This document shows positions 46,283-46,672 of a stretch of DNA of 64,000 bases, piece by piece. The DNA lies in assembly GCF_029227855.1 (NCBI RefSeq), contig NZ_CP074356.1. One strand, written 5' to 3'. The position numbers and the translations under genes are program-made. This stretch comes from Escherichia coli. Lineage in GTDB: Bacteria; Pseudomonadota; Gammaproteobacteria; Enterobacterales; Enterobacteriaceae. Each line of letters starts with the position of its first letter. Position 1 is the stretch's first letter. The notes under the pieces are model-generated. The model had not been told where the DNA came from and ran no database searches. It saw only the letters and a program-made list of their open reading frames with translations.

Positions 46283-46367
46283 GGTGGGGTTCCCGAGCGG
46301 CCAAAGGGAGCAGACTGTAAATCTGCCGTCATCGACTTCGAAGGTTCGAATCCTTCCCCCACCACCA
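46283..46367 (+). tRNA. tyrT: tRNA-Tyr (GUA anticodon), 85 nt with encoded CCA
   Basis: GGTGGGGTTCCCGAGCGGCCAAAGGGAGCAGACTGTAAATCTGCCGTCATCGACTTCGAAGGTTCGAATCCTTCCCCCACCACCA: cloverleaf with long variable arm. Confidence 0.97.
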
Positions 46368-46401
46368 TCTCAAGCATTACCTCAAAATTTGAATTACCCC
46401 T

Positions 46402-46486
46402 GGTGGGGTTCCCGAGCGGCCAAAGGGAGCAGACTGTAAATCTGCCGTCATCGACTTCGAAGGTTCGAATCCTTCCCCCACCACCA
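46402..46486 (+). tRNA. tyrV: tRNA-Tyr (GUA), second tandem copy
   Basis: Identical 85 nt sequence 34 bp downstream of the first copy. Confidence 0.97.
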
Positions 46487-46672
46487 TCACTTTTCAAAAG
46501 TCCGTGAACTCTCAAACGAATCCGCAATTAAATATTCTGCCCATGCGGGGAAGGATGAGAAGCTTCGACCAAGGTGCGACTCGGGCGCCAGCGAGAAAGC
46601 GTTGCCGCAGGCAACGACCCGAAGGGTGAAGCGCGCAGCGCTGAGTAATCCTTCCCCCACCACCATCACTTC
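46487..46672 (+). ncRNA. rttR: tyrT operon distal repeat unit (rtT-like) ending in a copy of the tRNA 3' terminus
   Basis: About 186 bp after tyrV ends with TCCTTCCCCCACCACCATCAC, repeating the last 19 nt of the tRNA; matches the recalled organisation of the K-12 tyrT distal repeats. One unit seen here. Confidence 0.4.

Follow-up and report, generated by a model that had tools for sequence, protein, structure and literature searches.

A tyrT operon of Escherichia coli with a 34-bp inter-tRNA spacer and one distal RtT unit: a common copy-number state of the tyrTV-rtT array

In Escherichia coli K-12, the tyrT operon is transcribed from the tyrT promoter, and the transcript is processed into two tRNA-Tyr molecules and the rtT RNA. 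The operon (tyrT-tyrV-rttR/tpr, b1231-b1229) is located at 1286.7-1287.8 kb of NC_000913.3, and the order of annotation at the MG1655 locus is purU, tyrT, tyrV, rttR/tpr, ychS and narI. Unequal recombination at the tandem tyrT genes, giving su3 doublet and singlet phages, is said to have been described by Russell et al. in 1970 and by Egan and Landy in 1978. The locus and the principle of those events, in which direct repeats cause tRNA copies and 178-bp units to be gained or lost, are the same as those considered here; however, they were laboratory events on transducing phages, whereas the present evidence is comparative and concerns natural alleles.

The E. coli window analyzed here (the whole stretch of 64,000 nucleotides) carries an operon at the same purU/narI site as K-12. 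The two loci are alike in their promoter hexamers, in their tRNA sequences, in the 34 bp directly 5′ of tyrV, and in having an RtT unit of one family that ends in the tRNA 3′ end. K-12, however, has a spacer of 209 bp between the tRNA genes and three distal units of 178 bp, whereas the window has a spacer of 34 bp and one distal unit; likewise, an intact 33-codon Tpr frame and the antisense ychS are present in K-12, whereas Tpr is truncated in the window. Two parts make up the K-12 spacer: an RtT-like unit of 175 bp, which ends in 19 nt of the tRNA 3′ end, and, after it, exactly the 34 bp that constitute the entire spacer of the window. Accordingly, Rfam detects RtT four times in K-12, once in the spacer and three times distally, compared with two in E. 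coli 042 and one each in the window and in strain NY1601, and the distance from tyrV to the stop codon of narI is 717 bp in K-12 and 363 bp in the window. The initial annotation had described a K-12 layout with a longer spacer and about three 178-bp distal repeats with Tpr; this description was correct, the K-12 locus having 209 bp and three units with rttR and tpr, and the combination of a 34-bp spacer with a single unit is not found there. The operon in the window is thus a different allele of the K-12 operon, and the two differ by whole repeat elements bounded by the tRNA 3′-end motif.

The interpretation that we favor, with a probability of roughly 0.8, is that the window holds a chromosomal tyrT operon (promoter, tyrT, 34-bp spacer, tyrV and one RtT unit) in the form of a common allele, that its 34-bp spacer is not a lineage-specific contraction, and that the first of two distal units (u1) was recently lost.

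The window contains exactly two tRNA genes, both of which are identified by ARAGORN as tRNA-Tyr(GTA). The first, tyrT (46283-46367, plus strand), is an 85-nt gene for tRNA-Tyr(GUA) that scores 53.4 bits with the Rfam tRNA model, and the second, tyrV (46402-46486, plus strand; ARAGORN and Rfam), is identical to it at all 85 nt. The 85-mer is also an exact string match to both tRNA copies of K-12. The two identical genes 34 bp apart that the initial annotation had described are therefore present as stated. Upstream of tyrT, a consensus scan finds a sigma-70-type promoter with 10 of 12 matches (TTTACA-16 nt-TATGAT; 46206-46233, plus strand), followed by the GC-rich stretch GCGCCCCGC; we take this element to be the tyrT promoter known from the K-12 locus. 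In the alignment, the promoter and the discriminator stretch are identical in the window, K-12 and 042. Two differences from both K-12 and 042 are found elsewhere in the tyrT control region: a C in place of G at position 46176, upstream of the -35 hexamer, and an A-run of four rather than five residues in the leader (46267-46270), by which the precursor leader would be 1 nt shorter.

The spacer between the tRNA genes (46368-46401, plus strand) has the sequence TCTCAAGCATTACCTCAAAATTTGAATTACCCCT and holds two leader-like segments. The leader 10-mer AAGCATTACC occurs at 46269-46278 and again in the spacer at 46372-46381, and ATTACCCC occurs separately, just 5′ of the second tRNA gene. Thus, some leader sequence is indeed repeated in the spacer, as had been proposed, but not in the form of an intact 11-mer, AGCATTACCCC.

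A single distal RtT unit of 179 bp (46487-46665, plus strand) follows tyrV and ends in AATCCTTCCCCCACCACCA, which is the last 19 nt of the tRNA. The Rfam family RF00391 (RtT RNA) matches its core (46534-46665) over the full length of the model (1-130 of 130), scoring 127.7 bits (gathering score, 45; E = 4e-27). The unit shows no substantial difference from this family; the points to note are two base pairs flagged as non-canonical and a single private SNP (G at 46584). The tRNA 3′-end motif recurs at 46351, 46470 and 46649, and the period of the unit, measured from 46470 to 46649, is 179 bp. A longer match of 25 nt, AATCCTTCCCCCACCACCATCACTT, is exact at 46468-46492 and 46647-46671, so that the unit is followed by a TCACTT stub (46666-46671, plus strand) representing the start, or a fractional copy, of a further repeat. 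The initial annotation was right in recognizing one distal unit that ends in a copy of the tRNA 3′ end, but its length of about 186 bp should be corrected to 179 bp, the excess being the stub TCACTTC. Both the exact 85-nt duplicate and the 25-nt exact triplicate motif are far beyond chance.

Within the unit, the Tpr-like open reading frame (46543-46629, plus strand) is truncated to 28 codons by a TGA stop codon (46627-46629) where K-12 has CGA. The same ATG opens a frame of 33 codons in K-12; the frame is conserved in the window, but its stop comes 5 codons early. An intact ORF equivalent to K-12 tpr (b1229), which encodes a protamine-like peptide, is therefore absent from the unit of the window. 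Because the early stop is also found in the terminal unit of 042 (u2) and in NY1601, the Tpr peptide is not conserved across unit types, and this variability of the frame weakens the case for a functional protein. The annotated K-12 gene ychS (b1228; 1210-1485 of the fetched K-12 locus) runs antisense within RtT units 2 and 3, which are missing in the window. On the minus strand of the window, 46487-46669 holds an antisense ORF of 60 aa, a length unrelated to that of ychS. These observations suggest that ychS is a by-product of the repeats and not a gene.

The array lies between purU and narI and, as judged from ORFs and annotated matches, is transcribed away from purU. The 5′ neighbor, purU (formyltetrahydrofolate deformylase; 45282-46124, plus strand), is a 280-aa ORF with a purU annotation at the equivalent E. 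coli position, and the convergent 3′ neighbor, narI (46850-47527, minus strand), is a 225-aa ORF annotated as narI in matching genomes; the interval between them measures 725 bp (46125-46849). An intrinsic terminator hairpin of narI (narGHJI), with a 9-pair stem and a T-run, was found by a terminator scan at 46810-46831 on the minus strand. Sub-threshold Rfam matches at 46800-46926 to rsmX, istR and STnc100 (20-25 bits against thresholds of 45-56) were discarded as this hairpin. Between the RtT unit and the terminator, a REP-like palindromic stretch, CCTACAATATCCTCCCCTGTAGGTCGGATAAGCGAAGCGCATCCGACA, is present at 46730-46790, and it is also found in K-12 and 042.

The ORFs abutting the tRNA 3′ end include no integrase, phage ORFs or foreign genes; nothing but the RtT unit, a brief intergenic stretch and narI follows this end. 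A prophage or a tRNA-associated genomic island is ruled out by this absence, and the initial statement that no integrase or phage remnant adjoins the tRNA genes is borne out for the whole interval between purU and narI, in which there is no mobile element. The ST131 strain EC958 (NZ_HG941718.1; 2585-4674 of the fetched locus) differs from the window in that foreign genes do abut the tRNA 3′ end: a single tRNA-Tyr gene is directly followed by genes of the fatty-acid desaturase and sterol desaturase families in the position where tyrV, RtT and narI would be expected. This arrangement suggests an island or a replacement adjoining the tRNA 3′ end in EC958.

To describe layouts, T is used below for a tRNA gene and R for an RtT unit. 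Six E. coli loci illustrate the range: K-12 is TRTRRR, BL21(DE3) is TRTR, O157:H7 SS TX 754-1 is TRTRR, E. coli W is TTR, E. coli 042 is TTRR and P31_YH1 is TTRRRRR. The locus of E. coli W (NC_017635.1) has the same layout as the window according to its PGAP annotation (tRNA, 34 bp, tRNA, one RtT sRNA, narI) and is collinear with it over the whole 1,601-bp query at 96.9% identity, although the 3′ half of its single unit is K-12-like, whereas that of the window unit is of the 042 terminal type.

Frequencies were estimated in 5,426 complete E. coli genomes, a RefSeq set biased by K-12 derivatives and outbreak clones. The junction of the tRNA with the 34-bp spacer is found, with the query fully covered, in 2,909 of them (54%). 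This query combined tRNA-specific sequence with the first 20 nt of the spacer, and the E-value limit was set so that genomes of the K-12 type reach only 79% coverage. The K-12 spacer unit, sought with a unit-specific query, is present in 1,920 genomes (35%), and the remaining approximately 11% include single-tRNA loci such as that of ST131 EC958. The distal unit query matches 4,711 genomes at 9,728 places (median 2, maximum 9); because BLAST joins repeated pieces into one place, coverage cannot separate one unit from two. The frequencies of full layouts and of unit numbers were therefore taken from samples of 60 evenly spaced rows of the ranked BLAST output and not from a full census. In one such sample, an unbroken collinear match to the window over 1.6 kb is seen in 12 of 60 records, including E. 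coli W and an O145 strain. The number of distal units is one in 28 of 60 sampled records, two in 9, three in 21 and four in 2, many of the three-copy records being K-12 derivatives.

The 34-bp spacer, present in the majority of the 5,426 genomes, and the single distal unit, the most frequent count in the 60-record sample, are thus the commonest states in E. coli. The implication of the initial annotation that K-12 is the norm and the present strain a notable contraction is not supported: the 34-bp spacer is the majority form, one is the commonest number of units, and E. coli W has the same layout. The locus in the window is a short form within an ordinary and already known copy-number polymorphism, and its layout is annotated in many public genomes.

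A similar diversity is seen outside E. coli. Eighty loci anchored on purU, one per species of Enterobacteriaceae, were classified by means of ARAGORN and an nhmmer profile for the RtT unit, and 62 of them were not cut by a contig end. Among these 62 loci, the modal layout is TTR (16), followed by TRTR (9), TTRR (7) and TRTRR (6); one distal unit is again the commonest count (29), and 34 loci have a short spacer (22-70 bp) and 25 a long one (135-317 bp). Short and long spacers coexist within each of the genera Citrobacter, Kluyvera, Kosakonia and Escherichia; the spacer of E. albertii measures 209 bp, Salmonella enterica subsp. arizonae has one of 36 bp, and the latter shares the TTR layout with many Enterobacter species. 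Because both states are spread across and within genera, the variable occurrence of a unit between the tRNA genes is an old and recurrent polymorphism, and K-12 is unusable as an ancestral reference. As far as the spacer is concerned, it is as likely that K-12 has the expanded form as that the window has the contracted form.

Further variants were observed among the outgroups. In several loci of Citrobacter, Kosakonia, Phytobacter and Cedecea, an extra RtT-like unit is located between purU and tyrT (approximately 3990-4180 of nine fetched loci), giving layouts such as RTTR and RTRTRR; no RtT-like unit upstream of the first tRNA gene was found in the E. coli loci examined. Citrobacter sp. MGH106 (4000-4324 of the fetched locus) harbors three tandem tRNA-Tyr genes with 35-bp spacers, and this TTTRR layout indicates that the module of a tRNA plus a spacer also varies in copy number.

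An identity of 99.1-99.6% to E. coli genomes supports the identity of the locus. Over 22 kb, the window is 99.1-99.2% identical to the best of the 5,426 complete genomes, and none of the complete E. coli genomes in the collection is more than 99.2% identical to window positions 36000-58000. The span of the best matches over these 22 kb also varies (EC556, 21.5 kb; EC581, 27.3 kb), so that additional indels exist near nar/opp/adhE, and the lineage of the strain is not closely represented.

The closest sequence relatives, E. coli 042 (NC_017626.1), EC556 and P15-25, have the 34-bp spacer of the window but one extra upstream distal unit (u1, 178 bp). Two distal units are thus present both in the nearest genomes over 22 kb (EC556 and P15-25) and in those nearest over the locus (042 and many others, 98.9%). 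In a three-way alignment of the window, 042 and K-12, the window departs from 042 at a few SNPs and at one clean gap of unit size, which lies between copies of AATCCTTCCCCCACCACCATCAC; the two are otherwise the same. The unit that is present corresponds to the terminal unit of 042 (u2): both have a TTTT run at their 5′ edge as well as the u2-specific motifs GGTGCG, GAGAAAG and GGGTGA, G at 46584 being the one private SNP. These comparisons support the initial proposal of a repeat-mediated contraction insofar as it concerns the distal array, and one distal unit has probably been lost from the lineage of the window, the direction of change being read from a few related genomes and the SNP patterns of the units rather than from a phylogeny. 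Gene conversion among units could also produce the same pattern.

The mechanism that we propose would operate on the ends of the repeats. Every element of the array ends in a shared tRNA 3′ end of approximately 19-26 nt (AATCCTTCCCCCACCACCA, extended by TCACTT after tyrV and the distal units), and whole elements would be gained or lost whenever two such ends took part in unequal recombination or replication slippage. The 34-bp spacer would then represent the version without an RtT-like unit between the tRNA genes; because it is the majority form in E. coli and is widespread in the family, it is not considered a lineage-specific contraction. The single distal unit, on the other hand, most likely arose in the recent ancestry of the strain from a 042-like array (tRNA, tRNA, u1, u2), in which u1 would have been lost by exchange within the 25-26 nt common to the 3′ ends of tyrV and u1 (AATCCTTCCCCCACCACCATCACTT), leaving the terminal unit. 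By analogy with K-12, one transcript from the tyrT promoter would yield two tRNA-Tyr molecules and one RtT RNA.

It might be argued that no loss occurred in this lineage and that the whole layout of two tRNA genes, a 34-bp spacer and one unit is a retained ancestral form from which K-12, 042 and others have expanded. The modal position of TTR among the species loci (16 of 62), including those of S. enterica subsp. arizonae and many Enterobacter species, is in keeping with such an origin, as is the preponderance of single units among species (29 of 62) and among the sampled E. coli records (28 of 60). We nevertheless regard it as unlikely, because all of the closest genomes, over 22 kb as well as over the locus, have two units, and because 042 u1 agrees with the K-12 units in its 3′ half whereas the window unit is of the 042 terminal type, from which it follows that u1 is older than the split. 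The distribution of the unit allele also argues against retention. At 99.4% identity (1 mismatch), the allele of the window is found in 336 genomes, and the five of these in the 60-record sample have two or three units each. In a search with the 801-bp locus, the two-unit arrays are outranked by NY1601 and GN25 alone, and no record with the window allele as its lone unit ranks above the two-unit records. The lone unit of NY1601, the one-unit genome that matches best (1889-2066 of the fetched locus) is a chimera with a 5′ part like 042 u1 and a 3′ part like 042 u2, implying that its one-unit state arose by an independent unequal exchange inside the unit body or by assembly collapse in that record. 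A collapse of this kind, in which two or more 178-bp units or the spacer unit were merged by the assembler, is also conceivable for the window, since tandem 178-bp repeats with exact 25-nt common ends are prone to it and since no exact (100%) match to the allele of the unit exists among the complete E. coli genomes in the collection. It is, however, improbable: the layout is shared with many closed genomes, including that of E. coli W, the two junctions are clean, and up to the tRNA end the remaining unit is entirely of the u2 type, whereas collapse would more naturally leave a chimera of u1 at the 5′ side and u2 at the 3′ side.

The short form could in principle be a selected, functionally distinct regulatory variant in which, for example, a lower dosage of RtT or Tpr tunes the stringent response or the supply of tRNA-Tyr, as opposed to a product of neutral drift. 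Unit number does range from 0 to at least 5 per array, and a single E. coli genome may contain as many as 9 unit matches; the unit type of the window has a truncated Tpr ORF; and a bioRxiv preprint describes rtT RNA as likely to play a part in modulating the stringent response. Selection nonetheless appears very improbable, since the layouts are scattered across genera as neutral turnover of repeats predicts, no link to lineage, niche or phenotype was observed, and the functions of RtT and Tpr are poorly established. Slightly more remote still is the idea that the tyrTV-rtT array is a contingency locus, in which frequent and reversible gain and loss of units, including the unit between the tRNA genes, would set the dosage of RtT or Tpr or the output of tRNA-Tyr, and of which the one-unit allele of the window, with its private SNP and shortened Tpr, would represent a recently selected low-dosage state as opposed to neutral drift.

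Beyond correct annotation, the locus in the window matters little, because it is a standard tyrT operon in a common copy-number state. K-12 is unrepresentative of E. coli at tyrTV-rtT, and its expanded array is shared by a minority of genomes. With 0 to at least 5 units and 1 to 3 tRNA copies, the locus is a hot spot for repeat-mediated changes in length, and this variation can confuse both assemblies and surveys of the presence or absence of sRNAs.
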